Position numbers and translations under genes: made by a program. The notes below the pieces were generated by a model. That model ran no database searches. It was given only the letters and a program-made list of their open reading frames with translations, and was not told the origin of the DNA. Of a stretch of 64,000 nt of DNA, positions 4,938 through 61,386 are shown one piece after another (within the stretch, counting starts at the first letter, position 1; each line of letters starts with the position of its first letter). The stretch spans positions 33,969 to 97,968 of the forward strand of contig MFSH01000023.1 in assembly GCA_001784875.1 (NCBI GenBank). Direction: 5' to 3'. Source of the stretch: Candidatus Moranbacteria bacterium RIFOXYB1_FULL_43_19. GTDB taxonomy: Bacteria; Patescibacteriota; Minisyncoccia; Moranbacterales; UBA11712.

Positions 4938-5046
4938 AAGTTTATACAAGAATGAAAGGCGTTTTATTGTTGAACGAAGCAGGTGCTGGCAATAAAGCGT
5001 TTCATGCCGATTTATTTGTATAGCACAAGGTGTATATTTAGTGAAG

Positions 5047-5874: not shown

Positions 5875-6046
5875 ATATTTAGTATAGAGTATAAAGTATA
5901 GTGTATAAAGTATCATGTATTTTTTCTTGAAAAAAAGAGCGGTTTGGTGATAGGATAGAAGCAAGTTTATCTATAGGAAAAATTTGGAGGGAGGGATCCG
6001 CAGAACTTTTTTGGCTTAAATTAAATAATAAAATCGATTTTAGGCT

Positions 6047-7045
6047 ATGAATAAGCTAAAAAATACCCTCAAAAAATGGAACTCCATATTTTGCAGTGGA
6101 ATGACCTGTAAGTCCAACATCGGGAGGGATATCGTTGTTCTTTTCCTGTTGATTCTGGTTGCTGCAGTTTTTCTCTATTCAACTGTATATACTCCCATGC
6201 AAGCGGAAAGAAAACCGGCAGTCCAAGCGGGAATTTCCGGCGGTCCCGAGAGTGTCGTCCCTCAAAAAGAAACTTCAGCGCCAATCATGTCGGAAGATAA
6301 TATCTCGAAAGAGGTTGAAAACATAATCAACACAATTGATTCGAGCAACTGGAAAAAAACCAACAACCAGTTCTGGGGTTTTTCAGTGAAATATCCCGGC
6401 GGTTGGCTCTCTCCCAAGAGCCAAAGAAAACCTGCCGGCTCCAAGTGGGAAGCCCGCTATCAATTCAGAAAAAAGGATGCCGGCGGAAATCCTTTTCTCG
6501 GTTTTGACGTCGCAGTTTATGACGTTCCGAAAACGAAGGAACTTCGGAATACTGAAGAATATCCGGTTCCAAAAAATGATAAACCTGATGCAAATAGCCA
6601 ATGCCAAAACATCGAAGGCCATGCAATTGAAATCGATGACTTTCCGGCCGAAGAGATATACATTCCCCTTGGCGATGATTGTTATAATGCCGCTTTGTTT
6701 TTCAGTATTGTGAAAGACAGGTATATCTATAACATCGTTCCAGTTCTCGAGGCCGGAGCCGAGCGGGGAACGGATCCCAGATTGGCCGTAAACGATAATT
6801 TCCCTGACTATTATGCCGCGGCTTCCACTTTGGTTCTTATTGACATTGTGAGGCCGAAACCCGCGCCGCCCAAGCCAAAAATCACCGCGCCAAAACCGGT
6901 GTCGTATAAAGTTGTGGGCGGCAGATTGGTCTGCGCCAAGAAAAACGACAAACCAAGAAAAAGCCGGCAGAACAAGGGGAAGCATCTTGATATGGAATGC
7001 TGTCTTGACCCCGACGAATATCCGAATCCCTGGTGCACGTATTAA
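6047..7045 (+). CDS. membrane-anchored secreted protein, paralog family member A with C-terminal C..GKHxDxxCCxDPDExPNPxCxY motif
   Basis: N-terminal TM anchor; shares GFDV.VY, YxxNIVP, FPxYY..STL blocks and the C-terminal Cys motif with ORFs 15217..15807 and 22088..23068. Confidence 0.6.
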   Translation: MNKLKNTLKKWNSIFCSGMTCKSNIGRDIVVLFLLILVAAVFLYSTVYTPMQAERKPAVQAGISGGPESVVPQKETSAPIMSEDNISKEVENIINTIDSSNWKKTNNQFWGFSVKYPGGWLSPKSQRKPAGSKWEARYQFRKKDAGGNPFLGFDVAVYDVPKTKELRNTEEYPVPKNDKPDANSQCQNIEGHAIEIDDFPAEEIYIPLGDDCYNAALFFSIVKDRYIYNIVPVLEAGAERGTDPRLAVNDNFPDYYAAASTLVLIDIVRPKPAPPKPKITAPKPVSYKVVGGRLVCAKKNDKPRKSRQNKGKHLDMECCLDPDEYPNPWCTY

Positions 7046-7139
7046 GTCCAGAATTGCCACGCAAAGCATCACAGGCGGACTTTTTATACTTTCTTCAGCA
7101 GTTGCCTCGATAAGTACATGAAACTTTAGCTAAAAAAAT

Positions 7140-8636
7140 ATGCCAGTTCAAAATTCCAAAGAAAATCGCAAAAAATGCCTTTGCCCGAACTGTCCGAGTT
7201 ACCCGCATGAATGCGACGGAGAAGTTTTATATTGCGCGGAGAAGGTGGGGCATAGCCAGTGCGACGTGAACGCCAAGGGCTGTCTATGCCCCGGATGTCT
7301 GGTTTGGAGTGAGAATAATCTCAAGGAAATATATTATTGCACGCGCGACACAATAGAACTAGCTTCCGCCCGAGGCGGATCCGCCTTTGGCGGAAAAGTT
7401 GTGATGCGGAAAAAAAAGCCGGACGAGAGCAATGAATTTTATCAGACAGTTGCGGACATAAAAACAATAGCCGAAACAGGCGAGAGCATTGAAAGGCCGA
7501 TGGGTTCGCTCAAGAAGCCGGGTTGCGGGTTATCTCTGGATAATCTGCATTTTGTCCCGGCGCAAGTGGCGAAAATTCCGCTCGACAGGGAAGAAAAAGT
7601 GAAAACTGGTGTTATTATCGGTCCGGTTGCAAAAAAACCGCTCAAAGTTTCATCTCCTATTATGATTACGGGAATGTCTTTTGGCGCGACCTCAAAAAAT
7701 GTGCATCTTGTTATTTCTCGCGTTGCGAAGGAACTGAAAATTGCTTTCAACTCTGGTGAAGGAGGCATCCTTGAAGAAGAATACGAATCAAAGAAATATC
7801 TAATCGGCCAATACGCTACCGGACGATTTGGAATCAATGAAGATGTGATCAAAAAAGTGGCGGCGGTTGAAATTCGCTTTGGACAAGGCGCCTATCCCGG
7901 GAAGGGAAGTTATCTGCCGGCCAAGAAAATGAGCGAAGAAGTCGCGAATCTGCGGGGACTGAAAACAGGCGAACCGGCCTATTCTCCCGCGCACCATCAT
8001 GATATGGAAACGCCAGGGGAAATTGCAGAGAAAGTGAAATGGCTCCGCGAACTGACGGGAGGAGTTCCCATCGGCGCGAAAATCGGCTGTGGAAATGTTG
8101 AGGAAGATGTGAAAGTTTTGGCCGAGGCCGGAATTGATTATATCGCCATTGACGGATTTGGCGGGGGAACAGGTGCGACGGACGCCTATGTCAAAGACAA
8201 CGTTGGGATTCCGGTTTGGGCGGCGATTCCAAAAGCTAATCAAACTCTTCAAGAACTGGGAGCGAGGAAAAATGTTACCCTCATCGCCGGAGGAAGCTTG
8301 CGGCTCTCGGCGGATTTTGCGAAGTGTCTCGCGCTAGGAGCGGATGCTGTTTATATCGGTACGGCCGCGCTCATTGCCATAAACTGCCAGCAGTATCGCG
8401 TCTGCCATACGGGACTTTGCCCGACGGGCGTGACTACCCATCGGCCGGAACTCGCTTCGCAGCTCAATGTCGAAGAAGGCGTCCGAAAATTATCAAACTT
8501 TATAAAAATATCAACCGAAGAAATTGCAGAATTCACAAGAATAGTCGGAAAAGATAATATAAATAAATTATCAAGCGAAGATTTAGTTTCAATAAAAAGA
8601 GATTTGGCGGAAATCCTCGGGGTAAAATGGATATAA
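7140..8636 (+). CDS. glutamate synthase domain-2-like FMN-binding protein (archaeal-type GltB family) with N-terminal 8-Cys module
   Basis: GSLRLSADFAKCLALGADAVYIGTAALIAINC..C..TGLCPTG matches GltB FMN/Fe-S domain; N-terminus CLCPNCP..C..C..CLCPGC. Confidence 0.75.
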   Translation: MPVQNSKENRKKCLCPNCPSYPHECDGEVLYCAEKVGHSQCDVNAKGCLCPGCLVWSENNLKEIYYCTRDTIELASARGGSAFGGKVVMRKKKPDESNEFYQTVADIKTIAETGESIERPMGSLKKPGCGLSLDNLHFVPAQVAKIPLDREEKVKTGVIIGPVAKKPLKVSSPIMITGMSFGATSKNVHLVISRVAKELKIAFNSGEGGILEEEYESKKYLIGQYATGRFGINEDVIKKVAAVEIRFGQGAYPGKGSYLPAKKMSEEVANLRGLKTGEPAYSPAHHHDMETPGEIAEKVKWLRELTGGVPIGAKIGCGNVEEDVKVLAEAGIDYIAIDGFGGGTGATDAYVKDNVGIPVWAAIPKANQTLQELGARKNVTLIAGGSLRLSADFAKCLALGADAVYIGTAALIAINCQQYRVCHTGLCPTGVTTHRPELASQLNVEEGVRKLSNFIKISTEEIAEFTRIVGKDNINKLSSEDLVSIKRDLAEILGVKWI

Positions 8637-8642
8637 AAAAAT

Positions 8643-8730
8643 CCACTACTATATATAGTTGTGGTCTTTCTACAAAATAAAAAGCAGGATTTATTATCTT
8701 CCATCCTACTACAACTAGTTGCAGTAGGAT
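8643..8730. repeat. pair of palindromes (CCACTACTATATATAGTTGTGG and ATCCTACTACAACTAGTTGCAGTAGGAT)
   Basis: Same two palindrome types recur at 61866..61925 in reversed order. Confidence 0.55.
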
Positions 8731-8756
8731 TTTATTTATCGCTGACGGAGCAAGTA

Positions 8757-8987
8757 TTATTCCGTTGCTCCCCGGAAGCAAAAATACCCGTCTTCCAAAT
8801 TATATTCCGCGTGGACAGGACAGGCGCCGCAAAGACATCCTTCCTTGGAAAGTTTGCAGGCTGTTTTTCCTTTGGCGCAGTAGAGATTTTCTTCCTTTTC
8901 TTCGGGACAGTTTGATTGGGTGAAAGTCGGACACTTTGGGCAAAAACATTTTTCCGCGTTTTCTTTTGTATTAGGAACTCTTGTCAT
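8757..8987 (-). CDS. standalone small Cys-rich protein paralogous to N-terminus of 7140..8636
   Basis: 76 aa; KEN.(E/K)KC.CP.CP..YCA(E/K)...C....(K/E)GCLC..C aligns residue-by-residue with the GltB-like N-terminal module. Confidence 0.6.
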   Translation of the reverse strand: MTRVPNTKENAEKCFCPKCPTFTQSNCPEEKEENLYCAKGKTACKLSKEGCLCGACPVHAEYNLEDGYFCFRGATE

Positions 8988-9002
8988 ATCTTTTGTGAAA
9001 AC

Positions 9003-9227
9003 CTAGAACCCCAAATAGGCTGAAAGAGCAAAGAGGGCATGGACCAACGCCAAAAAAATTGTCAGTTTCGCCAGTCGGAGATGCCATTTGAAAGGAATTT
9101 TTGTGTTGCCCTTGAAATTCAGATAGCCGATTGTCGCAGTTGAAAAAAGAGAAAGCAAAGCCAGCATCCCCAGATAAGCAACAATAGGCAGACCCAATAT
9201 TAGAGTATAGGCGATTTTTAAGATCAT
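9003..9227 (-). CDS. small 2-TM membrane protein
   Basis: 74-aa hydrophobic ORF immediately downstream of cupredoxin gene on same strand. Confidence 0.4.
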   Translation of the reverse strand: MILKIAYTLILGLPIVAYLGMLALLSLFSTATIGYLNFKGNTKIPFKWHLRLAKLTIFLALVHALFALSAYLGF

Positions 9228-9230
9228 GCT

Positions 9231-9707
9231 TTATTCTACGATCAATTTTCCGACCATTCCTTGCTGGCGATGAGTGGGAACGCTGCAATAATATTCAAAC
9301 GTTCCTATCTTGTCAGCGACGAATTCAATCGAATCGCTCTGGCCGGTTTGAACAACTTTCGTTCTGGCGTTGAATTCTTCTATGACCCAGTCGTGCATTC
9401 CCAGAGTGACAGCCAGATTAATTCTTACTCTATCACCTTTTTTCACTTTTATTTCTTTGATAGAAAATTCAAAGGGTTTGGCGGAGACGTCAAAAGATTT
9501 CACGCTTTGGTTGTCAGCCGAAGATTCTTTTGGAGCGTCAGTTGGAGTGCCCTGAGAGAGAGTTGCGGAATCCTTATTTCCGCCCCGGGAGAAAAGGATT
9601 ATTCCAATGATTGCAGCCGCAACTACTGCAATCCAAACCATCGAATTGCCTTTTGCCGGCATTTCATTTTGGTCTTTTTGCTCCTCGCTTGTTTCTTTTT
9701 CTTCCAT
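9231..9707 (-). CDS. membrane-anchored cupredoxin (blue copper protein, plastocyanin/amicyanin-like)
   Basis: Type-1 Cu ligand pattern H (GMHDW)...C-x2-H-x4-M (YYCSVPTHRQQGM); N-terminal TM anchor. Confidence 0.75.
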   Translation of the reverse strand: MEEKETSEEQKDQNEMPAKGNSMVWIAVVAAAIIGIILFSRGGNKDSATLSQGTPTDAPKESSADNQSVKSFDVSAKPFEFSIKEIKVKKGDRVRINLAVTLGMHDWVIEEFNARTKVVQTGQSDSIEFVADKIGTFEYYCSVPTHRQQGMVGKLIVE

Positions 9708-9779
9708 ATTTTTAGCTTGAATATCATGGGTTATAAATATTGATAAATTTCTGTCCTAATACTAAATAATACCATATAT

Positions 9780-11027
9780 TTGTCAAATTATTTCAGAGTT
9801 GCGGCAACCCTGGCTGGTTTAAATAATAAGCATATGGAAGGGTTTCTCTTGGTCTTGCGTAAATATAGTAATATGGAAGAAGAAAATTCAAAAAATAATT
9901 ATGGAAGAAGATCTGGCGTTTTTGTTTGGATTAAGGCTTTTATAGCGGTCGGAATCATTCTTTTTGCCTATCAATGGATCAACAATGCAGGTTGGGCAAG
10001 CAAAAGCATAATTGACTCCGAGCTCACGCTTGGAATTTCTTTTCTAACTGGGGTAGCAGCTTCCTTTTCAACATGCCTCGCCGTTGTCGGAGGAATGGTC
10101 ATTGCTTTTTCAGAAAAGTACGAATCCCGGGACAAAAATTTTTTTGCCGGAGTGATTCGGCCGAATCTATATTTCCACATTGGCCGACTGATAACCTTTT
10201 TTTTCTTGGGAGGAATTCTGGGCTTCGTCGGAGGAACGCTCAATATCAGCGGAAATTTTGTCTCCATGTACACCATTGTCTTCGCTGTTGTGATGGGCTG
10301 GCTGGGTCTCAATATTTTAGGAATCCTTCCTCCAATTTCGGCGCTCGGCTGGCGGATGCCAAAAAGCCTGACAAGACTTTGGGCAAAAATGGAAAATTCA
10401 GAGCACCAGGCAGCGCCGTTTCTTTTGGGCGGGCTCACTTTTTTTCTACCTTGCGGGTTTACCCAGAGCACCCAAGTTCTGGCTCTGGTTTCGGGAAGTT
10501 TTTTCGCCGGCGCGCTGGGACTTTTACTTTTTGCGCTGGGAACGATGCCGGTTCTCATGGCGGTGGGAGTTGCCACTTCCTGGGCGCGAAACAAAAAATT
10601 CGAAACTTTTCAGAAAGCGGCCGGAATTCTTATTATCTTTTTTGCGATATTTTCATTTCAAGCGGGTCTAGCGCTCAAAAGTGTGAAAAAAAATGTGATT
10701 TCTAATCCGGTTTCAAATTCAGAAAAAACGCAACTCTCCAAAGTCTTGCCAAACAATTTAGCTGAAAACCAAACGGTGGAAATGAGTGTTACGAGTCGCG
10801 GTTTTGAGCCGGGCAGCTTAAAAATAAAAAAAGGCACGCCGGTCCGCTGGATTATCAGGGGGGTTTCCGTCAGTGGTTGCACCAACCAGATTATTATCCC
10901 CAGTCTGGATATTGCTAAAAACATCAGTTCCGGTGAGAATATAATCAGTTTTGTTCCTCCGGACGTACGTGAAATTCCTTTCAGCTGTGGAATGGGAATG
11001 GTACGTGGGAAATTTATTCTTGAATAA
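9780..11027 (+). CDS. CcdA/DsbD-like polytopic membrane protein fused to C-terminal cupredoxin-like domain
   Basis: TM Cys residues ([15 protein letters not shown]) typical of DsbD_2/CcdA-like proteins; C-terminal beta-domain ending [15 protein letters not shown]; true start likely internal (MEGF/MEEEN). Confidence 0.6.
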
Positions 11028-11095
11028 ATTTCCCAAAGTTCAAAGTTCAAGATGAAAAAATAAAAATTTTTGGGTCCCGCTCTTCGGGACAGCTT

Positions 11096-13312
11096 ATGCT
11101 TATGAATCGCAAAAAGACGATGGTAACAATTTCCGGAATGACTTGCGCGAGTTGTGCCGTTTCGAACGAAAAAGAACTCTTGAAAACAAAGGGCATTTTG
11201 GACGCGTCGGTGAATTTCGCGGCCAAAAAGGCCTTTGTCGAATACGACGCGGACGAATTGAGCGAAGATGATGTAAAGAAGGTAATCAAAGACAACGGAT
11301 ACCAAATCGTGGAGCACGAAGAACATAGCATAAAACACAAACACGCCATGGTTATGGAAAACGGCGGTCACGAACATGCCAGCGAAGACATCAAAAATAA
11401 TTGGCAGGCATTTCTTTGGTCGGCCGTTTTTAGCCTGCCGCTTGTTTTGGAAATGGTTTATCAAATCCGGGCTGGTAAAAATATCCTTGGCATTGATCAG
11501 GTGATGTGGCTGCATCTCGTTTTGGCAACGTTTGTTGTTTTATTGTTCGGCTGGAGATTTCACCGAATGGCGTTCATGCAAGCCAAAAAATTTCGGGCCA
11601 ATATGGACACCCTGATATCGCTTGGAACGCTTACGGCTTATTTTTTCAGTTTGTGGGCAATTTTCAACGGGCGGGAGAGTTATCTTGAATCAGCTGCGCT
11701 TATAATCACATTCATTCTTCTCGGTAAATATTTTGAAGCCAAAAGCACGGGACAAGCCGGAGAGGCAATGCGCAAACTCTTGGAGCTGGGAGCAAAAAGA
11801 GCCCGCGTGGTTACGGAGGCCGGAGAAAAAGAAGTGCTCGTCGACGAGATAAAAGTTGGCGATGTGATTGTGGTGAAACCGGGCGAAAAAATTCCACTCG
11901 ACGGAATTGTTCTTGAAGGGGAATCCAACGTGGACGAATCTATGCTCACAGGCGAATCATTGCCGGTAGAAAAGAAAAAATTTTCCTCGATTTTTGGGGC
12001 AACGGTCAATCAGGATGGCGTGCTAAAAATAAAAGTGATGCAGATCGGAGAGCAGACAGTACTGGCGCAGATTATCAAAACCGTTGAGCAAGCACAGAGT
12101 TCGAAAGCTCCCATTCAAAAATTGGCTGACAAGATTTCTGGAATTTTTGTGCCAATTGTGATTGTTCTGGCTGCCATATCTTTCATCGGCTGGTATGGTT
12201 TTTCGGCTGATTTCACAAAAGCTCTGATCAATGCGGTGGCGGTTTTGGTGATTGCCTGTCCCTGCGCTTTGGGCCTTGCGACGCCAGCGGCAATCATGGT
12301 TGGAACGGGAAGGGGTGCGAAGCAAGGAATACTTTTCAAAAACGGGGAAAGCTTCGAAAGGGCAAAAGATATATCGATGATTGTGTTTGACAAAACGGGC
12401 ACGCTGACGAAAGGTCGGCCGGAAGTTGAAAGAGTTTTTGTGAATCCCGGCTTTAATTTCTCGAAGGATAAAATTTTAAAGATAGCGGGGAGCTTGGCGA
12501 AGCATTCCGAACACCCTCTTTCGAAGGCCGTAGCTGATTATATACACAAGAAAAATATTGCCCCAGTGGACATGAAAAATATCAAAGAGGAAAGGGGGAA
12601 AGGAATTTCGGCAGTTTGCGAGGAACACGGAACAAAATTGCTTTTGGGGAATAGAAAACTTTTAGAAGATAACAAAATTGACACAACGTGGGCGCAGGAC
12701 ATTCTGGAATCGGAAGAATTTCAATCTGGAACAAAATTATTTGTTGCGCATGGCAATGAAACCGTGGGCGCGATTGCAGTGGCGGATGAATTGCGAAATG
12801 AAGCGAAAGAAGCTCTGGGCAAGCTGAAAAAGATGGGACTGAAGATTGGAATGATGACAGGCGACAGCAAAAAAACGGCTGAACATATTGCCAAGGCCCT
12901 GGAAATAAAAGATGTCCGAGCTGAAGTTTTGCCCTCGGAGAAGGCGAATGAAATAAAAAGACTTCAGAGTATTGGGGAGAAGGTTGTTTTCGTGGGCGAT
13001 GGGATCAATGACGCGCCGAGCCTTGTTCAGGCTGATCTTGGAATTGCCATGGGATCAGCACAGGATATTGCCAAAGAGGCGGGACAGATTATTCTTGTCC
13101 ACAATAATCTCAAGAAAGTTGTTGAGGCCGTTGCAGTATCCAGGCTTACTTTCAAAACTATCCGCCAGAATCTTTTCTGGGCGTTCGGATATAATGTCGT
13201 TGCTATTCCACTCGCCATGGCCGGGTTCCTGAATCCCATTATTGCGGCGGGAGCTATGGCTTTTTCTTCTGTTTCAGTGGTGTTGAACAGTTTGAGGATT
13301 TATCGGAAATGA
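11096..13312 (+). CDS. copA: copper-translocating P1B-type ATPase
   Basis: N-terminal [17 protein letters not shown] motif ([11 protein letters not shown]), DKTGTLT phosphorylation site, GDGINDAP hinge. Confidence 0.9.
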
Positions 13313-18302: not shown

Positions 18303-19067
18303 ATGAGATTAATTGGCAGATCATTTTTCGGAGGGATGCTAGCTTTTAATATTCTTTTCCTTTCCGGGTGCCTTTTTAAGGACATTCAAAGGCCGGCGGT
18401 TCTTCGGAGTGCCGATGAATACAATGTGAAAGGCTATCAGGATCGCCAGCCGGAGGATCCCGAGGCAGAAAAAAGGCTTTCGGTCAGCGTTTCCGGAGGA
18501 GGCGGCAACGAGCAGTCCCAAGAATCCCAAACAGACCAGGAAAAAAATAGTCTTAATCCTGATCAACCTTCAGCTATGCAAATCGACCAGAACAAAAATT
18601 ATTCAGCTGTTCTCAAAACTGGTCAAGGCGACATTACCATCGATCTCGACGTAAAAAAAACGCCCAAAACAGTCAATAATTTCGTTTCTCTCGCGCGGGA
18701 CGGATTTTACAGCGGTACGATTTTCCACCGGGTCATCAAAGATTTCATGATCCAGGGCGGTGATCCAAGTGGTGACGGAACAGGCGGCCCGGGATATAAA
18801 TTCGACGATGAAAATCTCGAAGGAAAATATACTCGGGGGACAGTGGCGATGGCTAATTCCGGTCCGAACACGAACGGCAGCCAGTTTTTCATCATTCACA
18901 ATGACTATGATCTTCCCAACCAATATGTCATTTTCGGACATGTTTCGAGCGGAATGGACACTGTCGACAAAATTGCAAGCGCGGAAGTGACTACGTCGAG
19001 CTCAATGGAAAGATCCAAACCGGTGAGCCCGGTGAAAATTGATTCGGTGGAAATTTTGGAAAAATAG
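18303..19067 (+). CDS. ppiB: cyclophilin-type peptidyl-prolyl cis-trans isomerase, lipoprotein-like N-terminus
   Basis: FHRVIKDFMIQGGDP, GTVAMANSGPNTNGSQFFI cyclophilin signatures; LSGC lipobox. Confidence 0.85.
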   Translation: MRLIGRSFFGGMLAFNILFLSGCLFKDIQRPAVLRSADEYNVKGYQDRQPEDPEAEKRLSVSVSGGGGNEQSQESQTDQEKNSLNPDQPSAMQIDQNKNYSAVLKTGQGDITIDLDVKKTPKTVNNFVSLARDGFYSGTIFHRVIKDFMIQGGDPSGDGTGGPGYKFDDENLEGKYTRGTVAMANSGPNTNGSQFFIIHNDYDLPNQYVIFGHVSSGMDTVDKIASAEVTTSSSMERSKPVSPVKIDSVEILEK

Positions 19068-19070
19068 CTT

Positions 19071-19091
19071 TTCCAAGACTTAGTCTTGGAA
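19071..19091. repeat. perfect palindromic hairpin element TTCCAAGAC-TTA-GTCTTGGAA (same element found in-frame inside ileS)
   Basis: Intergenic between ppiB(+) and 19158..19496(-); 19-nt identity to 50724..50742. Confidence 0.7.
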
Positions 19092-19157
19092 AAAAATAAG
19101 CCTTCCCGTGGGAAGGCTTCTAAGTTTTTGTGGCGAAATGCAGGCAGAATAGATCCT

Positions 19158-23929: not shown

Positions 23930-24586
23930 ATGGATTACCAAAAAGAAATCGCGAGATCATTGCTCGAAATCGGCGCGGTGGGATTCAAACCCAAAGACCC
24001 CCTCACTTTCAAATCCGGACTGATTTCCCCGGTTTATGTTGACAACCGGATTTTTCCGGCGCACCCCGAAAAGTTCAAACTGGTGATCAACGGTTTCGAA
24101 AATCTCGTCAAAGAAAAAAATATTGATTTTGACATGGTCGCCGGAATCGCGGTGGGAGGAATACCCTATAGCGCTGTTTTGGGATACGAGATGCGAAAAC
24201 CTTCTATTTTCATCCGAAAAGAAGCCAAAGGGCACGGCAAAGGGAAGAGAATCGAGGGAGGAGATGTCAGTGGAAAAAAAATTCTGCTTGTCGAAGACTT
24301 GGTTTCAACTGGCGGGAGCAGCCTTTCAGGAGTCGAAGCTTTGCGGGAAGAAGGCGCGACCGTTGACGATTGCCTGGTTATCGTAAGCTATGAATTCAAA
24401 GAAGCGCAGGAGAATTTCGAAAAAGCGAAAGTAAGTTTGCGCGCTCTCACATCTTTTCCGGTCATTTTTCAGGAAGCTGTGGAAATGAAAAAAATAACGA
24501 AAGAAGAAAAGAAGATTGTTGAGGACTGGTATTCCGACCCGTGGAATTGGGCAGAGAAATATGGATTTTTGTCACGTAGCTCATAA
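23930..24586 (+). CDS. pyrE: orotate phosphoribosyltransferase
   Basis: PRPP-binding ILLVEDLVSTGGS; start taken at MDYQKEI. Confidence 0.85.
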   Translation: MDYQKEIARSLLEIGAVGFKPKDPLTFKSGLISPVYVDNRIFPAHPEKFKLVINGFENLVKEKNIDFDMVAGIAVGGIPYSAVLGYEMRKPSIFIRKEAKGHGKGKRIEGGDVSGKKILLVEDLVSTGGSSLSGVEALREEGATVDDCLVIVSYEFKEAQENFEKAKVSLRALTSFPVIFQEAVEMKKITKEEKKIVEDWYSDPWNWAEKYGFLSRSS

Positions 24587-24617
24587 CTCATAACACGTAA
24601 CCCGTAACACAAATTGT

Positions 24618-35050: not shown

Positions 35051-35354
35051 CTGCTATTACGCTTTAGCGCCGTGACTTTTTATATCTCTCAAGCAGATTG
35101 AGATTTGATTTTATCATATAAAGGGAGATAAAAAAAGAGAAAAAATTTCAAGGCGATCTTTCCTAAAATTAGACTTTGAAAGCGCGAAGCACGAACCGTG
35201 AGAAAAGAATTACGTAGCATGCTACGTAACACCGCCTTAAACAAAAACCGCTGGCAAGGGAGCATTTTCATAGTTTTGAAGGTTAATTGTTACACATATT
35301 ACTACCCGGAAATCTATCCTAAGATCGGATCTTAGGATAGATCTTAGGATAGAA

Positions 35355-37190
35355 TTATCTTCTTTTCCGTCCGGCTTGGACGCGCTCGTTTTCGGTGAGA
35401 AATTGTTTGCGCAGCCTCACGCTTTCGGGGGTGATTTCGAGATATTCGTCTTCGTCCATGATTTCCAGTCCCCGCTCAATCGTGAGCTTCAGAGGGGGAG
35501 TGAGATTGATGGCTTCATCGGCGCCGGACGCGCGCATATTGGTGAGCTGTTTTCCCTTGATCGGGTTCACGGCCATATCGTGGCCCTTGGAAACGTTCCC
35601 AATAACCATCCCTTCGTATACTTCGGTGGTTGGATCGATATACAGGCTTCCGCGTTCCTGAAGGTTGGCCAGCGAAAAGCCCAGCGCTTTTCCAGTGGCC
35701 ATTGAAACCATAGATCCGGTTTCCCGTTTAGCGATTTCGCCGGTGAAGGGGCGGAATTCAAGGAAACGGCTGGAAAAGATTCCTTCCCCCCGGGTATCAA
35801 TCATGAACTGCCCGCGATAACCCAAAATGCCTCGGGTGGGAATTTCAAAAATCATCCTGACCTGGCTTCCGCGCTGTTCCATTTGCGTCATCAATCCTTT
35901 TCTTTTTCCGAGTGTTTCAATGATCACCCCCGATGATTTTTCGGGCACGTCAATCGTCACTTCTTCAAAAGGCTCAAGCTTTTTCCCGTCTTCTTCTTTA
36001 ATAATCACTTGGGGCTGGGAAATCTGGAGCTCATATCCTTCGCGGCGCATATTCTCAAGAAGAATGGCGATATGAAGTTCGCCTCGGCCGAAGACTTTAT
36101 AATATTCTGGTCCGCCAGCCGGCCCGCCAGAAATGCTTTGCGCAGCAATGCGGGCTGGTGGATTAAAATCAATTTTGAGGCCGACATTCACTTCGAGTTC
36201 CTTTTTGAGGCGCTCTTTGATTTGCTTCGTCGTCACGAATTTTCCTTCGCGCCCGGCAAAAGGCGAGTCATTGACCAAAAAATTAAGAGAAATTGTCGGC
36301 TCATCAATTTTGATGGCCGGAAGCGGCGCTTGTTCTTCGTTTTCACAAATTGTTTCGCCGATATCAATGTCCGGGAGGCCCGCGACCATCACTATGTCTC
36401 CAGCCAGAGCTTCCGAAACTTCTTTTTTGGCAAGCCCTTCAAAAGTGAACATTTTGATTATTTTCCCTTTACGGGTTTCTCCGTTAGGTTTCCGAACAAA
36501 AGCTTCGCCATTTTTGATAGTTCCTTCTTGCACTCGGCCGATGGCCAATCTCCCGAGAAAATTATCATAAGCAAGACTAAAAGGCTGGAAGCGAAAAGGG
36601 GCACTGGTATTTTGGGAGGCGGGCGGAACTTTTTTAAGAATAGTATCAAGAAGAGGAGAGAGATCTTTCGATTCGTCGTCCAAATGAATTTTGGCAATGC
36701 CATCCCGGCCGATAGAGTAGACCGTTTCAAAATCAAGCTGTTCGTCTGTCGCACCCAGATCAAGAAAAAGTTCAAAAACTTTTTCCTGGGCCATTTCTGG
36801 CTCAGCCGCCGGCTTGTCGATTTTGTTGATGACAACAATGGGTTTCAGCCCCAGCTCAAGAGATTTTTTGAGAACGAACCGAGTTTGAGGCATGGGTCCT
36901 TCCTGGGCGTCAACGACCAAAAGGACGCTGTCAATTGAGCGGAGAACCCGCTCCACTTCAGAACCAAAATCAGCGTGTCCGGGCGTGTCCACGATGTTGA
37001 TTTTCGTTCCTTTGTAAAATACAGAAGTATTTTTGGAATAAATTGTGATGCCGCGCTCTTTTTCAAGGGCGTCAGAGTCCATGGTCGCGGCTTCATCTTT
37101 TTCCATTCCGGTCTGGCGCATGATGGCGTCGGTGATGGTCGTCTTTCCATGGTCCACATGGGCAATAATGGCGATGTTTCTGATTTCCAT
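35355..37190 (-). CDS. typA: translational GTPase TypA/BipA
   Basis: [27 protein letters not shown]-motifs, EF-G-like domain order; start taken at MEIRNIA. Confidence 0.9.
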
Positions 37191-37214
37191 TTGGCTAAAA
37201 AACAAAATCTGCTA

Positions 37215-45862: not shown

Positions 45863-45900
45863 TATCTAGTATCTAGTATCTGGTATCTAGTATCTGGTAT
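45863..45900. repeat. heptanucleotide tandem repeat (TATCTAG/TATCTGG) x5
   Basis: tatctag tatctag tatctgg tatctag tatctgg directly after SpoIID-like gene stop. Confidence 0.6.
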
Positions 45901-45954
45901 ATTGTATAAAAAAATTTCCTTTCGGAAATTTTTTTCGTAAAACCTTTTGAAGCC

Positions 45955-48595: not shown

Positions 48596-48700
48596 AACTA
48601 AAATGTAAAATCGAGAAGCTACAATTAAAATCCAAAAACTAAATGGAAAAATTTTAGTTTTCAGTTGCAGTTTTTGCTTTTTAGATTTTCGCTTTTAACC

Positions 48701-51631
48701 ATGTTCAATCCAGTCAATCCCAAACAAAGCCTTCCTGAAATGGAAGAAAAAATTCTCAAGTTTTGGGAAGAAAATAGAATTTTTGAGAAATCCCTGGAAC
48801 TTCGCCGAGACGCGGAGCTTTATTCTTTTTACGACGGGCCGCCTTTTGCCACCGGCCTTCCTCATCATGGGCATCTTCTGGCCTCAACCTCGAAAGACGT
48901 CGTGCCGCGATATTGGACTATGAAAGGCTTCCGGGTCCCGCGCCGGTGGGGATGGGACACCCACGGCCTTCCCATTGAAAACATCATTGAAAAAAAGTTC
49001 AGCTATAAAGGCAAAAGGGACATTGAAAAAAATATCGGGCGCTTCAACGCGGAGGCCAAAAAAACCGTTCTCCAGTTTGCAGACGAGTGGAAAAAAACAG
49101 TCCGCCGGATCGGCCGCTGGGTGGATTTCGACAATTCCTACAAAACAATGGATAGCTCTTTCATGGAATCGGTCTGGTGGGGATTTTCAGAGCTCCATAA
49201 AAAAAATTTGGTTTACAAAGACTCGAGAATATCCCTTTATTGCCCGCGCTGTTCGACGCCCCTTTCCAATTTTGAGGTGGCGATGGATTCAAGCTATAAA
49301 GAAGTCAAAGACGCTTCGGTATATTTCAAGTTAAAAGTGAAAGGCGAAAAATATCCGGACACTTTTTTCCTTGTTTGGACGACTACGCCCTGGACGCTTT
49401 TGGCGAACGTCGCCATCGCCGTGAATCCGAAAGAGAAATATGCAGTTGCGCGGCAGGGGAAAGAAAAATATATTTTGGCCAAAGACCGCCTTGAAGCGCT
49501 TGGAGAAGGTTTTGAAATCGAAAATGAAATAGCCGGCAAAGATTTGGAGGGAATCGAATACGAGCCTATATTTGCGCACACCATAAAAAATGGATACCGC
49601 GTGGTGACCGGCAATTTTGTGAGTCTTGAAGACGGGACGGGAATCGTCCATATCGCTCCGGCTTTCGGCGAAGACGATTTCCGGGTGAGAAAAGAAAACA
49701 ACCTGCCCATCATTGAAAACGTGGATGATGAAGGAAAATTCATCGAAGGCGATTGGGTGGGCGAAAATGTCTGGGAATCGAATTTCAAAATTTTAAAGGA
49801 TATATCCGAGAGAGGGTTTGTTTTCAAGAAAGAAAATGTGGGCCATTCGTATCCTTTTTGCCACCGTTGCGACACCAAGCTCATCTACATGTCCCAGCCG
49901 GCCTGGTTCATCAAAGTTTCAGAGCTGAAAGAAAAACTTTTGGCGGAAAATGAAAAGATCAGCTGGCACCCCAAGCATCTCAAAGAAGGAAGGTTTGGGA
50001 ACGGTCTTGAGACAGCGCCCGACTGGAATATTTCCCGCTCAAGATATTGGGGAAACCCGATGCCGATTTGGCAATGCGACAACAAAAAAGCCAAAAGCTT
50101 GGAATGCGATAATATTAGGATAATTGGGTCTTTCAGGGAACTGGAAAAATTGTCCGGAAAAAAACTGGAGGATTATCATCGGCCGATGATTGACGAAATA
50201 ACTTTTCCTTGCGAAAAATGCGGCGGAACAATGAAAAGGATTCCCGATGTTTTCGACTGCTGGGTGGAATCTGGTTCGATGCCTTTTGCCGAATTCCACT
50301 ATCCCTTCGAAAACAAGGAAGAATTTGAAAAAAGGTTTCCCGCCCAATTCATTTCCGAGTATATTGCCCAGACGCGGGGGTGGTTCTATACTCTCCATGT
50401 TCTTTCTGTGGGATTGTTTGGGAAGCCAAGTTTTCTCAACGCCGTGACAACGGGGACCATCACCGGCGCGGATGGGAAAAAGCTATCCAAGTCTCTTGGG
50501 AATTTCACTGACCCTAACATGCTCGTCAACCGCTTCGGGGCAGACGCTTTTCGCTTTTATCTCATGAGTTCGCCTCTTATGGAAGGGGAAAATCTGAGTT
50601 TTTCAGACGATGAGCTAAAAGATATCTTCAAGGGGATGTTTCGGATGCTTTGGAATACATATTCCTTTTTTGCCCTCTATGCGAATATTGACAAATTTGA
50701 ACCAAGACTAAGTCTTGGGGTGTCCCCAAGACTTAGTCTTGGAAATTTGCTGGATAAATGGGTAATTTCTGAATTGAATAGCCTGATAAAAAATGTGAAT
50801 CGGCATATGGAATCCTACGAACTTTCGAGAGCGGCAAGATTATTCCCGGTCTTCATTGATAATCTTTCTAACTGGTATATTCGCCGGAGCCGTAAAAGAT
50901 TTTGGAAACCGGCCTCTCCGGCAGGCGGGAGCGAGAGTGATGAGGATAAAAAACAGGCTTACGAAACCTTGCATTACATACTAACAGAGCTGTCAAAGCT
51001 GATGGCGCCGTTCACGCCTTTTGTAGCGGAGGAAATTTATAAGAATCTTTCCGGAGAAGAATCTGTGCATCTGGTTGATTTTCCAGCTGCAGATGAAAAA
51101 ATGGTTGATGATGAACTCAACAAGCAAATGCAACTTGTGCGGCGTTTCGTAAAAATGGGGCTGGCCGCTCGGGCGAAAGCCGGAATCAAAGTACGCCAGC
51201 CCCTCAAAGAGTTGATGGTCAACGAAATTATCGATGACAATCTGCTGGATCTTCTGAAGGAAGAAGTGAACGTGAAAAAAATCGGCTTTTACGGATCGAT
51301 TGAAAAAGATCCGGGAATATACATCGAACAGGAAGGGAATTCGATGGCCGGCCTCAATATTGTCATAACAGATGAGCTGCGCCTCGAGGGAGAGGCCCGG
51401 GAACTCATCCGGCGCATCCAAGAGCTTCGGAAAAAAGCGGGATATGAAGTTGACAACCGGATCACCATTTTCTACCAGGGAGGAGAGAAAATTTTTGAAA
51501 AATTTGGGGACATAATTGCCCGTGAGACTCTAGCCACTGGCGCGATTGAAAGCGAGGGAACTGATTCTGACATCGAAGAATTTTTTGAGCTGGAAACAGC
51601 GCCGGTAAAAATTTGGCTGAAGAGGATATAA
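48701..51631 (+). CDS. ileS: isoleucine--tRNA ligase
   Basis: HIGH (PHHGHLL), KMSKS (KLSKSLGN), editing domain, Zn-finger CxxC pairs; contains in-frame palindromic insert. Confidence 0.92.
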   Translation: MFNPVNPKQSLPEMEEKILKFWEENRIFEKSLELRRDAELYSFYDGPPFATGLPHHGHLLASTSKDVVPRYWTMKGFRVPRRWGWDTHGLPIENIIEKKFSYKGKRDIEKNIGRFNAEAKKTVLQFADEWKKTVRRIGRWVDFDNSYKTMDSSFMESVWWGFSELHKKNLVYKDSRISLYCPRCSTPLSNFEVAMDSSYKEVKDASVYFKLKVKGEKYPDTFFLVWTTTPWTLLANVAIAVNPKEKYAVARQGKEKYILAKDRLEALGEGFEIENEIAGKDLEGIEYEPIFAHTIKNGYRVVTGNFVSLEDGTGIVHIAPAFGEDDFRVRKENNLPIIENVDDEGKFIEGDWVGENVWESNFKILKDISERGFVFKKENVGHSYPFCHRCDTKLIYMSQPAWFIKVSELKEKLLAENEKISWHPKHLKEGRFGNGLETAPDWNISRSRYWGNPMPIWQCDNKKAKSLECDNIRIIGSFRELEKLSGKKLEDYHRPMIDEITFPCEKCGGTMKRIPDVFDCWVESGSMPFAEFHYPFENKEEFEKRFPAQFISEYIAQTRGWFYTLHVLSVGLFGKPSFLNAVTTGTITGADGKKLSKSLGNFTDPNMLVNRFGADAFRFYLMSSPLMEGENLSFSDDELKDIFKGMFRMLWNTYSFFALYANIDKFEPRLSLGVSPRLSLGNLLDKWVISELNSLIKNVNRHMESYELSRAARLFPVFIDNLSNWYIRRSRKRFWKPASPAGGSESDEDKKQAYETLHYILTELSKLMAPFTPFVAEEIYKNLSGEESVHLVDFPAADEKMVDDELNKQMQLVRRFVKMGLAARAKAGIKVRQPLKELMVNEIIDDNLLDLLKEEVNVKKIGFYGSIEKDPGIYIEQEGNSMAGLNIVITDELRLEGEARELIRRIQELRKKAGYEVDNRITIFYQGGEKIFEKFGDIIARETLATGAIESEGTDSDIEEFFELETAPVKIWLKRI
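50702..50742. repeat. two inverted copies of 17-nt palindrome CCAAGACT(A/T)AGTCTTGG inside ileS, in frame (encodes PRLSLG-VS-PRLSLG)
   Basis: ccaagactaagtcttgg ggtgtcc ccaagacttagtcttgg; second copy identical over 19 nt to intergenic hairpin at 19071..19091. Confidence 0.75.
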
Positions 51632-53419: not shown

Positions 53420-55357
53420 TTGTCTCTCAAGGAAATTGAAGGGAAAATTTATAAAAGAGAGGGAGAAACTCCGCAAGATAAAAAAGCGACTGGAAATTCT
53501 CCAAGCCTGACCGAAAAAAACGAAAGTCCTTTCGCGCCGACTTTTTTCAAAACGGAAGAGGCGAAAAAGAACGGCGTCTGGATCAAGGAAGACGAAGAGA
53601 AAAAAGCCAAAAAAAAGAAAGTCGTGAAAATTGCCGCAATTTCAGCTTCGGTGTTGGTTTTGCTTTCCGGGCTAGTCTGGGGCGCTCTTTATATAAGAAA
53701 AAGTTCTTTTTCGGAAGATAAAGTGACAATTTCCATTTCCGGGCCGGAAGAAATTCAAAGCGGGGACATGGTGACTCTTGAGATAAATTATAAAAATGAA
53801 AACCGGGCGAGCCTCAAGGACGCCGTGATTGATATAAGTTATTCCGAAAATTTCAAGCCGCTCGACAACCTCAACCTGGAATCGGGAGGACCAAATTCGA
53901 GCCGCCACAATGTAGGGACAATAGAAGGAAAATCGGATGGAAAGTTTGAGTTGCGGGGAAAATTTTTTGGCACAAAAGGCCTTTTAACCTACATAAACGT
54001 CAAACTTCAATATAGTTCTTCAAATTTCAGTTCCCAGTTCGAAGCCGAAGCAAAACACGGAATGACAATTTCCTCAAGTCCGCTTGAAATTGAAGTCATT
54101 GGTCCCCAAAGCGTTTCTTCCGGGGGAGCAGTTACCTTTTTGGTGAAATATCGAAACGCCGGCCAGCAGGTTTTCCGGGACCTCAAGATGAAAGCTGATC
54201 TGCCGGCCGATTTTACGGTGACAACTTCGGAGCCGTTGCCGGCTTCGGGAGGAAATATCTGGTATGTAGGGGATTTGGAAGGACAAGGAAGCGGGGAATT
54301 GAAAATTTCAGGAGTGCTCGCGGGGCAGCCCCAGGAAACAAAGCAATTCAAATTTGCTCTTGGGGAGATTGGCAGTGACGATTTTATCGCCTATAACGAA
54401 ACGTCAAAAAGCATCAAAGTGATAGGCGTGGCGGTGGCTCTCACCCAGACAATCAATGACAAAAAAGACGCTCTTCTCGTGAATACGGGCGACAATTTGA
54501 ATTTTAAAATCAAATTCAGAAACGTAAGCGACACGGCGCTCAAAGACTTGATTCTCACCGAAGAAATATCCAGCCCGGCCCTTGACTATGGTTCATATCG
54601 GGATTCTTCGGGTTCGCAAGGGGCGCTCGATTCAAACAAAGGAATCATATCCTGGAAAGCGCCTGGCCTTGAAAAATTGAGAGCGCTGAACCCCGGGGAA
54701 GAAGGGGAGCTCAGTTTTTCGGTGAAAATAAAAGACAAGGTCCCCGTTTCAAGCGCGAAAGACAAGAATTTTTCCTTTACGGCCATTTGCCGGATCGAAA
54801 GCCCCGATATTCCCACGCCCGAAGGAGAAAACAAAATAGTTTCCGGAAATGGAATTGCGGTGAAACTCAATTCGAAAATAATTGTTCGGGAAGAAGGATA
54901 CTACAATGACGCGGAAATTTCCAATACCGGTCCTCTTCCTCCCAAGGTAGGAGAAGAGACGACCTTCGCGATCCATCTCAAGGCGGAAAATATTTCCAAC
55001 GACATAACAGACGCGAAAATTGTGGTGACGCTGGCTCCAAATGTTTCCTGGAAAGATAATTTTTTGCCAAAAGACGCAAATATTGATTATAATGACCGGA
55101 CAGATGAGGTGGTCTGGAACATCGGGTCTCTTCCGGCAGGCGTGGGAACGATTACTGATCCTAAAGAAACTATTTTCCAGATTGGCCTCAATCCCTCGGC
55201 AAATTTTGTCGGCCAGTATCCCAAACTTCTCAAAAGCACGGTTTTTTCAGCAAAGGACAGCTTCACCGGGCAAAATCTGGAAGCGAAACTGGGCGAAAAA
55301 GATACCAATCTTACTGAAGACTTGAGCGTAGGCAGCTCGGGGATGGTTACGCAATAA
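53420..55357 (+). CDS. large membrane-anchored surface protein with repeated beta-rich (DUF11-like) domains
   Basis: Single N-terminal TM (VVKIAAISASVLVLLSGLVWGALYI) then ~550-aa extracytoplasmic region of repeated Ig-like segments. Confidence 0.5.
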   Translation: MSLKEIEGKIYKREGETPQDKKATGNSPSLTEKNESPFAPTFFKTEEAKKNGVWIKEDEEKKAKKKKVVKIAAISASVLVLLSGLVWGALYIRKSSFSEDKVTISISGPEEIQSGDMVTLEINYKNENRASLKDAVIDISYSENFKPLDNLNLESGGPNSSRHNVGTIEGKSDGKFELRGKFFGTKGLLTYINVKLQYSSSNFSSQFEAEAKHGMTISSSPLEIEVIGPQSVSSGGAVTFLVKYRNAGQQVFRDLKMKADLPADFTVTTSEPLPASGGNIWYVGDLEGQGSGELKISGVLAGQPQETKQFKFALGEIGSDDFIAYNETSKSIKVIGVAVALTQTINDKKDALLVNTGDNLNFKIKFRNVSDTALKDLILTEEISSPALDYGSYRDSSGSQGALDSNKGIISWKAPGLEKLRALNPGEEGELSFSVKIKDKVPVSSAKDKNFSFTAICRIESPDIPTPEGENKIVSGNGIAVKLNSKIIVREEGYYNDAEISNTGPLPPKVGEETTFAIHLKAENISNDITDAKIVVTLAPNVSWKDNFLPKDANIDYNDRTDEVVWNIGSLPAGVGTITDPKETIFQIGLNPSANFVGQYPKLLKSTVFSAKDSFTGQNLEAKLGEKDTNLTEDLSVGSSGMVTQ

Positions 55358-55500
55358 GTTTGAAATCCTAAATTCTAATATCTAAATCCTAAACAATACT
55401 AAAATTCAAATAACCAAAATTCAAAACTTTTGAAAATTTGAATTTGGAGAGTTTGAATTTGTTTAGAGTTTGGCGCTTGGAATTTAGGATTTTTATGGTT

Positions 55501-56718: not shown

Positions 56719-58010
56719 GAAAAAAAATCGAACTCATTGCTCCCGGAGGGAGCCTTGAAAAAATTGAATATGCCTATCATTTTGGGGCTGACGCGGTCTA
56801 TGCGGGGCTGCCGAATTTTTCTTTGCGGTCGAGGATCAATGAATTCAACGAGAGAAGATTGGTGAAAGCAGCGAAGTTGGCGCGAATCCTTGGCAAAAAA
56901 ATATATTTCACAATCAATGTCTACGCCCACGAGCGGCACCTGGAAGTTCTCAAAAAACATTTGAAATTTATAAAAAAGATAAAGCCGGACGCGGTGATCG
57001 TCAGCGATCCAGGCATAATCAATCTGGTCAGAAATTTTTCGCCGAAGATAAAAATTCATCTTTCCACTCAAGCCAACACAACCAATTCTGAAGCGGTAAA
57101 ATTTTGGCAAAAACTAGGAGTATCGCGAATAATCCTCGCGCGGGAAGTGACGCTTGAAGAAATAAGGGGAATAAGAAAAGCGTGTCCGAAAATAGAATTG
57201 GAATATTTTGTCCATGGCGCGATGTGCATGAGCTATTCGGGAAGATGCCTGCTTTCCCGATGGATGCGAAACCGGAGCGCTAATCTGGGGGACTGCGCAC
57301 AACCGTGCCGGTGGCCGTATCACGTAACACGAAACACAAAACACGTAACACAAGAAAATAAGGAAGAAATTATTTTATCAGAGGATGAACATGGGACTTA
57401 TTTTCTAAATTCCAAGGATCTTTGTTTGATAGAGTATTTAGACAATTTGGCCAAAGCGGGAGTGAATTCTTTTAAAATCGAAGGGCGGACGAAGAGCGCC
57501 TATTATGTTGCTTGCGTGGCAAAATCCTATAAAAAAGTATTGGACGCAATAAAATTCGGAAAAAGCCAAATGGAAATCAAAAAAGTTTCTGCTTTGGAAA
57601 GAAAAGAGCTGGAAAAATTGGTAAACCGCGGATACTCAACCGGATTTTTGTTCGGAAAAGACAAATGGGAAAATGATTTTGAAAAATCCCACCAGGAAAG
57701 CAAATGGCAATTTGTGGGGGAGATTATTGGCATAGAACCGACTCATATCGCTGCACAAAGCGGGTTTTGCTCGCGAAGCGTTGCGGGCGGGGAAAATTGG
57801 GCAAAAGTTAAAATACATAACGTTCTGAAAAAAAAAGAAAGAGTAGAAATAATCATGCCAGACAAGATATATGGAGACGAAATTTTGGAAATTAGAAACA
57901 GCAATGGCGAAAAAGTTAAATCGGCCCACGGCGGGGGAAAACAGGCTTATTTTGTCCGGCTCAGCCGTTTTTATCCCGAAAAATCGATGCTAAGAAAATA
58001 TCAGGGTTAA
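56715..58010 (+). CDS. peptidase U32 family protein (RlhA/TrhP-like putative RNA hydroxylase)
   Basis: U32 signature region E..FVHGAMCMSYSGRCLLS; 4-nt ATGA overlap with tgt stop. Confidence 0.8.
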   Translation: MRKKIELIAPGGSLEKIEYAYHFGADAVYAGLPNFSLRSRINEFNERRLVKAAKLARILGKKIYFTINVYAHERHLEVLKKHLKFIKKIKPDAVIVSDPGIINLVRNFSPKIKIHLSTQANTTNSEAVKFWQKLGVSRIILAREVTLEEIRGIRKACPKIELEYFVHGAMCMSYSGRCLLSRWMRNRSANLGDCAQPCRWPYHVTRNTKHVTQENKEEIILSEDEHGTYFLNSKDLCLIEYLDNLAKAGVNSFKIEGRTKSAYYVACVAKSYKKVLDAIKFGKSQMEIKKVSALERKELEKLVNRGYSTGFLFGKDKWENDFEKSHQESKWQFVGEIIGIEPTHIAAQSGFCSRSVAGGENWAKVKIHNVLKKKERVEIIMPDKIYGDEILEIRNSNGEKVKSAHGGGKQAYFVRLSRFYPEKSMLRKYQG

Positions 58011-61246: not shown

Positions 61247-61386
61247 TATTTTTTTGGTCTCGTCTAAATTTCCAATTTCCAAATCCCAATTTCCAAATAA
61301 ATTCCAAATTTTTGGTTTGATATGTTTTGTTTCTTTTAAAATCATCGAGCGTTTTTAGGGAATGAAATAAGAAAGAGGAGGTTATT

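Follow-up and report, generated by a model that had tools for sequence, protein, structure and literature searches.

Repetitive extragenic palindromic (REP) sequences, REPIN doublets and REP-associated tyrosine transposases (RAYTs) are the subject of a 'REPtron' literature that reportedly includes Nunvar 2010, Bertels & Rainey 2011 and Ton-Hoang 2012. Here we compare with these systems a short palindrome from a 64,000-nt stretch of DNA (the window) of Candidatus Moranbacteria bacterium RIFOXYB1_FULL_43_19 (contig MFSH01000023.1, positions 33,969 to 97,968), where it lies once behind the ppiB gene and twice within ileS, the gene for isoleucyl-tRNA synthetase (IleRS). We consider it probable that this palindrome is a REP-type sequence, and that a cognate RAYT-like Y1 HUH transposase of the same genome maintains its family and has most likely spread it.

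REP super-families are defined by a GTAG (or CGTC) tetranucleotide at the foot of the hairpin (Di Nocera 2013, PMC3733652). Intragenic in-frame REPs have already been documented, many of them doublets and many in repair (uvr) and tRNA synthetase genes (PMC3733652). The motif Y-x3-N marks TnpA-REP rather than IS608-type TnpA, and in subclass 2.4 in-frame REPs lie inside the tnpA-REP genes themselves (Quentin 2018, PMC6006769). RAYTs are single-copy per genome and vertically inherited (Bertels 2017, PMC5581495). Among the Rickettsia palindromic elements (RPEs), RPE-1 are the longer palindromic insertions and the shorter RPE-4 and RPE-6 carry a CGTC tag (PMC3733652). Our literature search found no paper describing REP-type palindromes in the Candidate Phyla Radiation (CPR, or Patescibacteria), to which the present host belongs. 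Homologs of the IleS protein likewise assign the window to Candidatus Moranbacteria, inside the CPR.

Three copies of one palindrome in the window

The window was searched for the 17-nt palindrome CCAAGACTWAGTCTTGG with up to two mismatches allowed. Three matches were obtained against 0.01 expected, and three were reached in 0 of 100 shuffles, confirming the three copies of an earlier sequence-only reading. They lie at 19073-19089, with T at the centre, and in ileS at 50702-50718 and 50726-50742, with A and T at their respective centres. No fourth site was present elsewhere in the window at this tolerance. The consensus of the family is TTTT-CCAAGACT-W-AGTCTTGG-AAAA, and the unit measures 17-25 nt. 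The features concerned are as follows.

18303..19067, + strand: ppiB-like cyclophilin gene, with a single palindrome copy in its 3' untranslated region (Pro_isomerase Pfam match on the L121 ortholog)
19069..19093: single REP-like palindrome TTTTCCAAGACTTAGTCTTGGAAAA (core 19073-19089), intergenic, 2 nt past the ppiB stop codon and 4 nt ahead of the terminator hairpin
19098..19119, + strand: intrinsic terminator hairpin of ppiB, AAGCCTTCCC-GT-GGGAAGGCTT and then a T-run (context, outside the repeat family)
48665..51631, + strand: ileS, type-2 IleRS of 988 aa, host gene of the doublet
50702..50742: REPIN-like doublet in ileS, two inverted 17-nt palindromes joined by GG-TGT-CC and translated PRLSLGVSPRLSLG in the IleS linker

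The centres of the two ileS copies are complementary (A, then T) and, with the 7-nt spacer included, the doublet makes up a single perfect palindrome of 41 nt, in which arms of 19 bp enclose a 3-nt loop; no longer palindrome exists in the window. The predicted folding energy of the doublet is -37.8 kcal/mol as RNA (z = -8.7) and -22 kcal/mol as DNA. The intergenic hairpin proposed behind ppiB was likewise found: a 25-nt palindrome, of which this copy forms the core, separates the ppiB stop codon (19067) from the terminator, and the ppiB 3' region, terminator included, has a predicted RNA folding energy of -27 kcal/mol (z = -5.2).

A cognate Y1 transposase in the same genome

Two metagenome loci, L122 and L135, carry three palindrome copies around and inside an open reading frame (ORF) of 222-235 aa, which in L122, L168 and L169 encodes the 235-aa protein P0121. 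The identical palindrome occurs 20 nt upstream of the P0121 start codon, in frame at about +200 nt (read FPRLSLGK) and in the last codons (L169:46, 283 and 750). Within the gene, the palindrome precedes the HUH motif, and its FPRLSLGK segment lies in a loop of the structural model of P0121.

P0121 matched the Pfam family Y1_Tnp (PF01797, IS200-like) with 25.6 bits, the cut-off being 23. Among 60 homologs, H90-Y-H92 (the HUH motif) and N153 are invariant and Y149 nearly so, which yields the signature Y149-x3-N153. The AlphaFold (AF2) model of P0121 is confident, with a pLDDT of 89.7. Of the PDB entries, it best matches 4er8, a structure of the E. coli REP-associated tyrosine transposase in complex with a REP hairpin (E 8.6e-7; target-length-normalised TM-score 0.65), and next come the IS608 and ISDra2 transposases. 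A phmmer search of the transposase against PDB sequences returned no match, the kinship being visible only at the profile and fold level. Several homologs have already been labelled 'REP element-mobilizing transposase RayT' by JGI. On sequence grounds, the P0121 type is a divergent RAYT subfamily.

The transposase gene belongs to the genome from which the window comes. In assembly GCA_001784975.1, contig MFSN01000011.1 matches window positions 1-12079 with 100% identity, N-filled gap aside, and contig MFSN01000015.1 encodes P0121. An apparent 195-nt difference between the window and MFSN01000011.1 proved to be only the N-filled scaffold gap. Moreover, two samples that gave contigs identical to the window, ERZ27254749 and ERZ4902915, also contain P0121.

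Paralogous RAYT-like genes were found in L128, L124 (two genes) and L123, and each is flanked by a different perfect palindrome. The full 5', internal and 3' layout recurs at L124 gene 2 with the palindrome TTAGACGTCGGACGTCTAA and at L128 with TTCCGAAAG-N5-CTTTCGGAA, the internal copy of the latter having one mismatch, while L124 gene 1 (ACCAACATTGAATGTTGGT) and L123 have flanking copies.

L124:4545-5207, - strand: RAYT-like gene, with its own palindrome family
L124:6277-6915, + strand: RAYT-like gene, divergent from the preceding gene and about 1 kb apart from it, with its own palindrome family
L123:12831-13226: RAYT-like paralog region

The source genome itself holds at least two paralogs, P0121 and P0197 (both named RIFOXYB1_FULL_43_19), which lie on the same contig and have different palindromes, as in genomes with several REP families. 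No exact duplicates of the transposase gene were seen. The architecture of the ileS doublet, GGGG-NNN-CCCC, recurs beside a RAYT-like gene at L135:2557-2603 and is shared by L123:12612-12656, and some sister families are tagged, for example CTACC...GGTAG in L124. This covariation of transposase paralogs with palindromes is the hallmark of REP-RAYT 'REPtrons' (PMC3733652).

Copies elsewhere in the source genome and in relatives

The palindrome belongs to a dispersed family. About 110 kb of the source genome were examined, and 10 copies were found at five loci: three copies in the window, two in rsmI, three around the RAYT gene and two more on the RAYT contig. Further genomic copies, which the idea of a family implies, thus exist beyond the window. 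When the source contig was read 10 kb past the window end, an in-frame rsmI doublet appeared (...NSKTKSWERFPRLSLGK...). Its two copies are in direct orientation, with a 9-nt spacer, and are read in two frames as SKTKSW-ERF-PRLSLG.

L159:14915-14957 (window-equivalent ~66865-66907): doublet in rsmI (TP_methylase), copies at 14915 and 14941, 2.9 kb past the window end
L123:1127 and 1153: doublet on the RAYT contig

Reference genomes were scanned with the bare 17-mer, and metagenomes with the 17-mer plus three extra flanking bases. Among the reference matches listed, the informative ones are Moranbacteria and perhaps three Saccharibacteria, and the identical 17-mer was present in the other Moranbacteria loci L073, L067, L092 and L034. 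The site behind ppiB is filled with its centre base flipped at the orthologous position of Moranbacteria GW2011_GWC2_40_12 (L073:5375 and L126), an Elp3-like gene has an in-frame copy in two genomes (L067 and L092), and a glycosyltransferase (GT4) gene of L034 holds a palindrome doublet. In-frame copies in the metagenome loci lie in the genes of CysRS (L124), RsmI (L125 and L133), UvrC (three copies, L149/L152) and an ArgRS-like protein (L154), as well as in other ORFs. Two assignments in the source genome were tested and dropped: window ORF 7140..8636 is not an Elp3 ortholog, and the 'tRNA-synt_1e' gene of L159 is not CysRS.

Matches outside the CPR (among L005-L117 and L127-L153) are not members of the family and represent conserved protein motifs or isolated, sporadic terminators. 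The same 17-mer encodes the motif (R)P(L/I)(S/A)KTKSW of ribosomal protein S17 in many bacteria, and other matches encode QDLVLD of group II intron reverse transcriptases. Genome-wide palindrome searches are swamped by these coding coincidences. An Rfam search of the odd metagenome matches found no RNA family at the sites, which are S17 genes, and the four matches in viral contigs were all coding coincidences, giving no sign of phage origin. In the Saccharibacteria (L020:1891, L021:5772 and L101:1182), the 17-mer is the core of longer intergenic hairpins such as GAAAATCCCAAGACTTAGTCTTGGGATTTTC, which may be a coincidence or point to a related family in a further CPR lineage.

All three reading frames of the palindrome are used, with the products PRLSLG, QDLVLE and SKTKSW, and in the two frames where the 'wrong' centre base gives a stop codon the permissive base is always present. 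About 11 of the distinct sites sampled are within ORFs and in frame, and about five are intergenic (the ppiB 3' region, the RAYT 5' flank, L128, L130 and the L135 doublet), in what is a small sample selected by the search pattern. Across six orthologous site pairs, the palindrome was identical at 99 of 102 positions compared with 75% identity in the flanks (range 62-80%; P = 1.3e-9), and all three differences were A/T flips of the centre base. Three readable frames and a palindrome so much better conserved than its flanks indicate that the conserved unit is, on the sequence comparison, the DNA and not the peptide.

Individual copies nevertheless differ in state between genomes. The first copy is decayed in the rsmI ortholog of L125 (which keeps one intact copy), in the GT4 gene of L147 and in the ileS gene of L121. 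The ArgRS slot is occupied by a doublet of a second family (CCTAAGATCSGATCTTAGG) in L067 and L092 and, in L154, by a hybrid doublet of two variants, each of which alone is a perfect palindrome. Maintenance or replacement thus seems to act on the single hairpin, and the family in a given slot changes from one genome to another. Such a pattern could come from strong constraint on the DNA or from repeated re-copying by the transposase, and the data fit both.

The conservation could also be read as the mark of a host-selected cis element, either a site bound by a host DNA- or RNA-binding protein or an mRNA hairpin that works as a stabiliser or processing site, with the transposase link secondary. 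The very strong conservation relative to the flanks agrees with such a role, as does the ppiB copy, which lies between stop codon and terminator at the typical position of mRNA-stabilising REPs (PMC3733652). However, the palindrome sits in three frames of unrelated housekeeping genes that share no common regulatory logic, orthologous slots change family between genomes, and one host factor does not explain a separate palindrome for each transposase paralog. We regard this explanation as unlikely.

The palindrome doublet occupies a common IleS linker

Both ileS copies are in frame within the 988-aa ORF and encode PRLSLG-VS-PRLSLG, as the sequence-only reading had stated. The encoded residues lie between ...YANIDKFE and NLLDKW..., and alignment to the solved IleRS structures 8c8v and 1ile placed them in the linker from the catalytic domain to the anticodon-binding domain, in agreement with the variable linker named by the sequence-only reading. 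The 14-aa insertion proposed there is not a net gain of 14 residues. A linker is present at this position in all 120 of the 120 aligned IleS orthologs, with 9-19 aa and a median of 12; 8c8v, the best solved homolog, is five residues shorter there. The 42 nt of the doublet region are the linker itself (14 residues), and the doublet adds only about 2-5 residues relative to ortholog linkers. Bypass or removal of the segment in translation was considered and dropped, the segment being in frame and of ordinary linker length.

What the orthologs share is thus the slot, and the closer ones carry other palindrome variants or heptanucleotide arrays in it. In L121, whose IleS protein is 63% identical, the same doublet is present with its first copy slightly decayed. 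The doublet of L120 is direct and consists of a compensated variant, CCAAGGTCGGACCTTGG, repeated at 24 nt. Direct rather than inverted orientation is also that of the rsmI doublet. Perfect (GTCAAAA)x4 and (ACCAAAA)x4 arrays fill the slot in L118 and L119. These repeats in close-clade linkers were suggested by the peptides and then confirmed on the DNA of L118-L121. Peptide periodicity showed the palindrome-doublet pattern in nine and the heptamer pattern in nine of 59 close-clade IleS proteins, compared with none and one, respectively, of 61 more distant orthologs. Moranbacteria bacterium RBG_13_45_13 is credited with two IleS proteins that differ in their heptamer-type linkers (P0032 and P0091, with 58% and 55% identity to the query), so that either ileS is truly duplicated there or the bin is mixed.

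A target-site duplication at the ileS doublet was also sought by comparing the DNA of orthologs, and none was consistent. The 7-nt repeat AAATTTG that flanks the doublet was rejected as a duplication: its period of 50 nt is not a multiple of 3, it corresponds to the conserved codons KFE/NLL, and L120 and L121 lack it.

Mis-assembly or multiple displacement amplification can create long perfect palindromes in metagenomes, and a chimeric inverted repeat would resemble the doublet. The identical IleS protein with its linker was, however, assembled independently on at least 10 contigs from several samples by two assemblers (MEGAHIT and SPAdes), so that the doublet is not an assembly artefact; the same sequence stands in both NCBI and JGI records, and the reading frame is preserved. 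The probability left to an assembly or amplification artefact is practically negligible.

Local origin without mobility is another way to explain the doublet. The ileS linker would then be poorly constrained and prone to slippage, the palindrome would stem from template switching or hairpin-templated repair, and its likeness to other copies would be incidental. The repetitive content of the same slot in L118, L119 and L120 speaks for this, as do the similar linker length across orthologs and the heptamer arrays in a second ileS slot (see below). Against it, the identical 17-mer occurs at at least five unrelated loci of the same genome, around the Y1 transposase gene among them, where 0.01 matches are expected per 64 kb, and the same doublet recurs in L121. 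We therefore hold a purely local origin to be highly unlikely.

The simplest reading of the ileS doublet is a tolerated, translated passenger. We infer that it is neutral for IleRS, and the 19-bp hairpin in the ileS mRNA may slow ribosomes.

Heptanucleotide arrays and other palindromes

Tandem repeats were called with Tandem Repeats Finder (TRF). Period-7 arrays of at least 3.5 copies numbered 30 in 255 kb of Moranbacteria loci versus 13 in 761 kb of control loci. The same heptamer units recur at unrelated sites, and the arrays share slots with palindromes.

The window itself holds heptanucleotide arrays of 4-6 units, with differing units, at the following positions.

5881-5920: heptanucleotide array
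11034-11050: heptanucleotide array
24573-24610: heptanucleotide array
45863-45907: heptanucleotide array, right past the stop codon of SpoIID and ahead of the terminator
55363-55393: heptanucleotide array
57316-57353: heptanucleotide array inside a U32 peptidase gene, sharing the unit ACGTAAC with the array at 24573
61267-61310: heptanucleotide array

Others of these arrays lie right past the stop codons of ORF 53420..55357 and the GlyRS gene. A second variable slot of ileS was noted at window positions ~50075-50105 (IleS residues ~460-470), between two Cys pairs (WQCDNK...ECDN). In orthologs it contains (AAAACCA)x4.6 or (AAGCGCA)x4.3-4.6 (L118:2818-2849, L119:4384-4413 and L120:7488-7519), in the window about two units and in L121 none. 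The unit CCAAAAA stands in the second slot of L118 and in the first slot of L119, and heptamer units thus behave as dispersed families.

Cyanobacterial short tandemly repeated repetitive (STRR) sequences are heptanucleotide repeats. They resemble the Moranbacteria arrays in being dispersed tandem 7-nt units with a unit that recurs at unrelated sites. In contrast, many Moranbacteria arrays are intragenic, have a frame-preserving total length and share slots with palindromes. An excess of heptameric simple sequence repeats in bacteria has been described (PMC4692102). We speculated that RAYT-linked palindromes and heptanucleotide arrays both arise in Moranbacteria from a single ongoing process on single-stranded DNA that repeatedly overwrites the same permissive slots, which could be aminoacyl-tRNA synthetase loops, repair-enzyme loops and the gap between stop codon and terminator. 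This proposal is rather doubtful; if true, linkers of essential proteins in these reduced genomes would owe their continual rewriting to a domesticated transposase and not to point mutation.

Two other palindromes of the window were noted.

35312-35353: second palindrome family, a 31-nt perfect palindrome (core CCTAAGATCGGATCTTAGG at 35318) and a 12-nt tandem copy, adjoining the downstream end of ORF 35355..37205 (- strand)
11006-11035: 30-nt perfect palindrome TGGGAAATTTATTCTTGAATAAATTTCCCA, overlapping the end of ORF 9780..11027 and followed by (CAAAGTT)x2.4

The core CCTAAGATCGGATCTTAGG also occurs as in-frame doublets (LLRSDLRSVLRSDLRK) in the ArgRS-like genes of L067 (1650, 1674) and L092 (2396, 2420). 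No second copy of TGGGAAATTTATTCTTGAATAAATTTCCCA was present among the loci compared.

Discussion

The Moranbacteria family shares with REP/REPIN-RAYT systems short dispersed palindromes, often in inverted doublets that fold to one long hairpin, and a single-gene Y1 HUH transposase flanked by cognate palindromes that are specific to each paralog. The best structure match 4er8, the Y-x3-N signature and the copies just downstream of genes are further points in common. The stems differ: those of the Moranbacteria family are perfect, flanked by AT and built around a 1-nt centre, whereas REP stems are imperfect and GC-rich. Furthermore, the internal copy of RAYT subclass 2.4 genes lies between HUH and Tyr, unlike the copy upstream of HUH in P0121, and the host is a member of the CPR/Patescibacteria.

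A mobile or recombinogenic origin, as the sequence-only reading suggested, is the best reading. The dispersed family it implied was found, together with a cognate Y1 gene flanked by the same palindrome; the mobility of the copies is the part we infer. To our knowledge, Y1 transposases make no target-site duplication. By analogy with E. coli TnpA-REP and IS200/IS605 TnpA, the palindrome would fold into a hairpin on single-stranded DNA, for instance at a replication fork, and a P0121-type transposase would bind this hairpin, then cut and rejoin the adjacent DNA through a 5'-phosphotyrosine (tyrosine-DNA) intermediate. Hairpin units could in this manner be copied or replaced without target-site duplication, and the lack of a reproducible duplication flanking the copies is consistent with the Y1 cut-and-rejoin mechanism. 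Copies would survive only where tolerated, namely just past stop codons or in surface loops and linkers, when free of stop codons and frame-preserving. Such survival in loops and after stop codons would reflect selection in a genome with almost no intergenic space.

Several observations weigh against this REP-type interpretation. We saw no transposition event, no polymorphism between empty and filled sites and no variation among strains. Filled sites are common to genomes that are only 60-80% identical, indicating that copies are either old or continually re-homogenised, and the copy number in the source genome is modest (10 copies at five loci in ~110 kb). The GTAG or CGTC tetranucleotide at the hairpin foot is absent, and the flanks are TTTT/AAAA or GG/CC. 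The sampled sites are mostly intragenic, unlike the predominantly extragenic sites of classical REPs. In addition, P0121 reached only 17.9 bits against the NCBIfam model NF047646 (REP_Tyr_transpos), far below its cut-off of 80. Finally, the heptanucleotide arrays in the same slot of closer ileS orthologs are left unexplained by the REP-RAYT model.

The insertion sequences (IS) of the IS200/IS605 group (IS608 and ISDra2) have the same transposase fold, catalytic motifs, single-strand hairpin recognition and lack of target-site duplication. An IS of this group, however, moves its own gene between two different imperfect subterminal hairpins and has Y-x3-Q, whereas the dispersed unit in Moranbacteria is the naked hairpin and identical palindromes stand on both sides of the gene.

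The sequence-only reading had also likened the ileS doublet to Rickettsia RPEs. RPE-1 elements measure about 100-150 bp, and we know of no cognate transposase for RPEs. The likeness stands insofar as both are palindromes that enter essential genes in frame and add translated residues to loops (PMC3733652). It ends at size, tag and transposase: the unit here is 17-25 nt, several times shorter than RPE-1, the CGTC tag of RPE-4 and RPE-6 is absent (PMC3733652), and a cognate Y1 transposase is present in a host of an unrelated phylum. Literal membership in the RPE family is accordingly very improbable; RPEs are a functional analogy only, and the closest kind is REP/REPIN-RAYT.

The understanding of the REP mechanism is unchanged by these results, since intragenic in-frame REPs and REPs inside RAYT genes have been described. 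As REP-type sequences, the Moranbacteria palindromes would extend REP/REPIN-RAYT systems to the CPR. In these very compact genomes, most of the surviving hairpins seem to be intragenic and to be translated into loops of essential enzymes (IleRS, ArgRS, CysRS, RsmI, UvrC and Elp3). The repeated peptides PRLSLG, QDLVLE and SKTKSW in CPR proteins would then be DNA-level hitch-hikers and not functional motifs; they would mark permissive loops, and the palindromes could be used as lineage markers.

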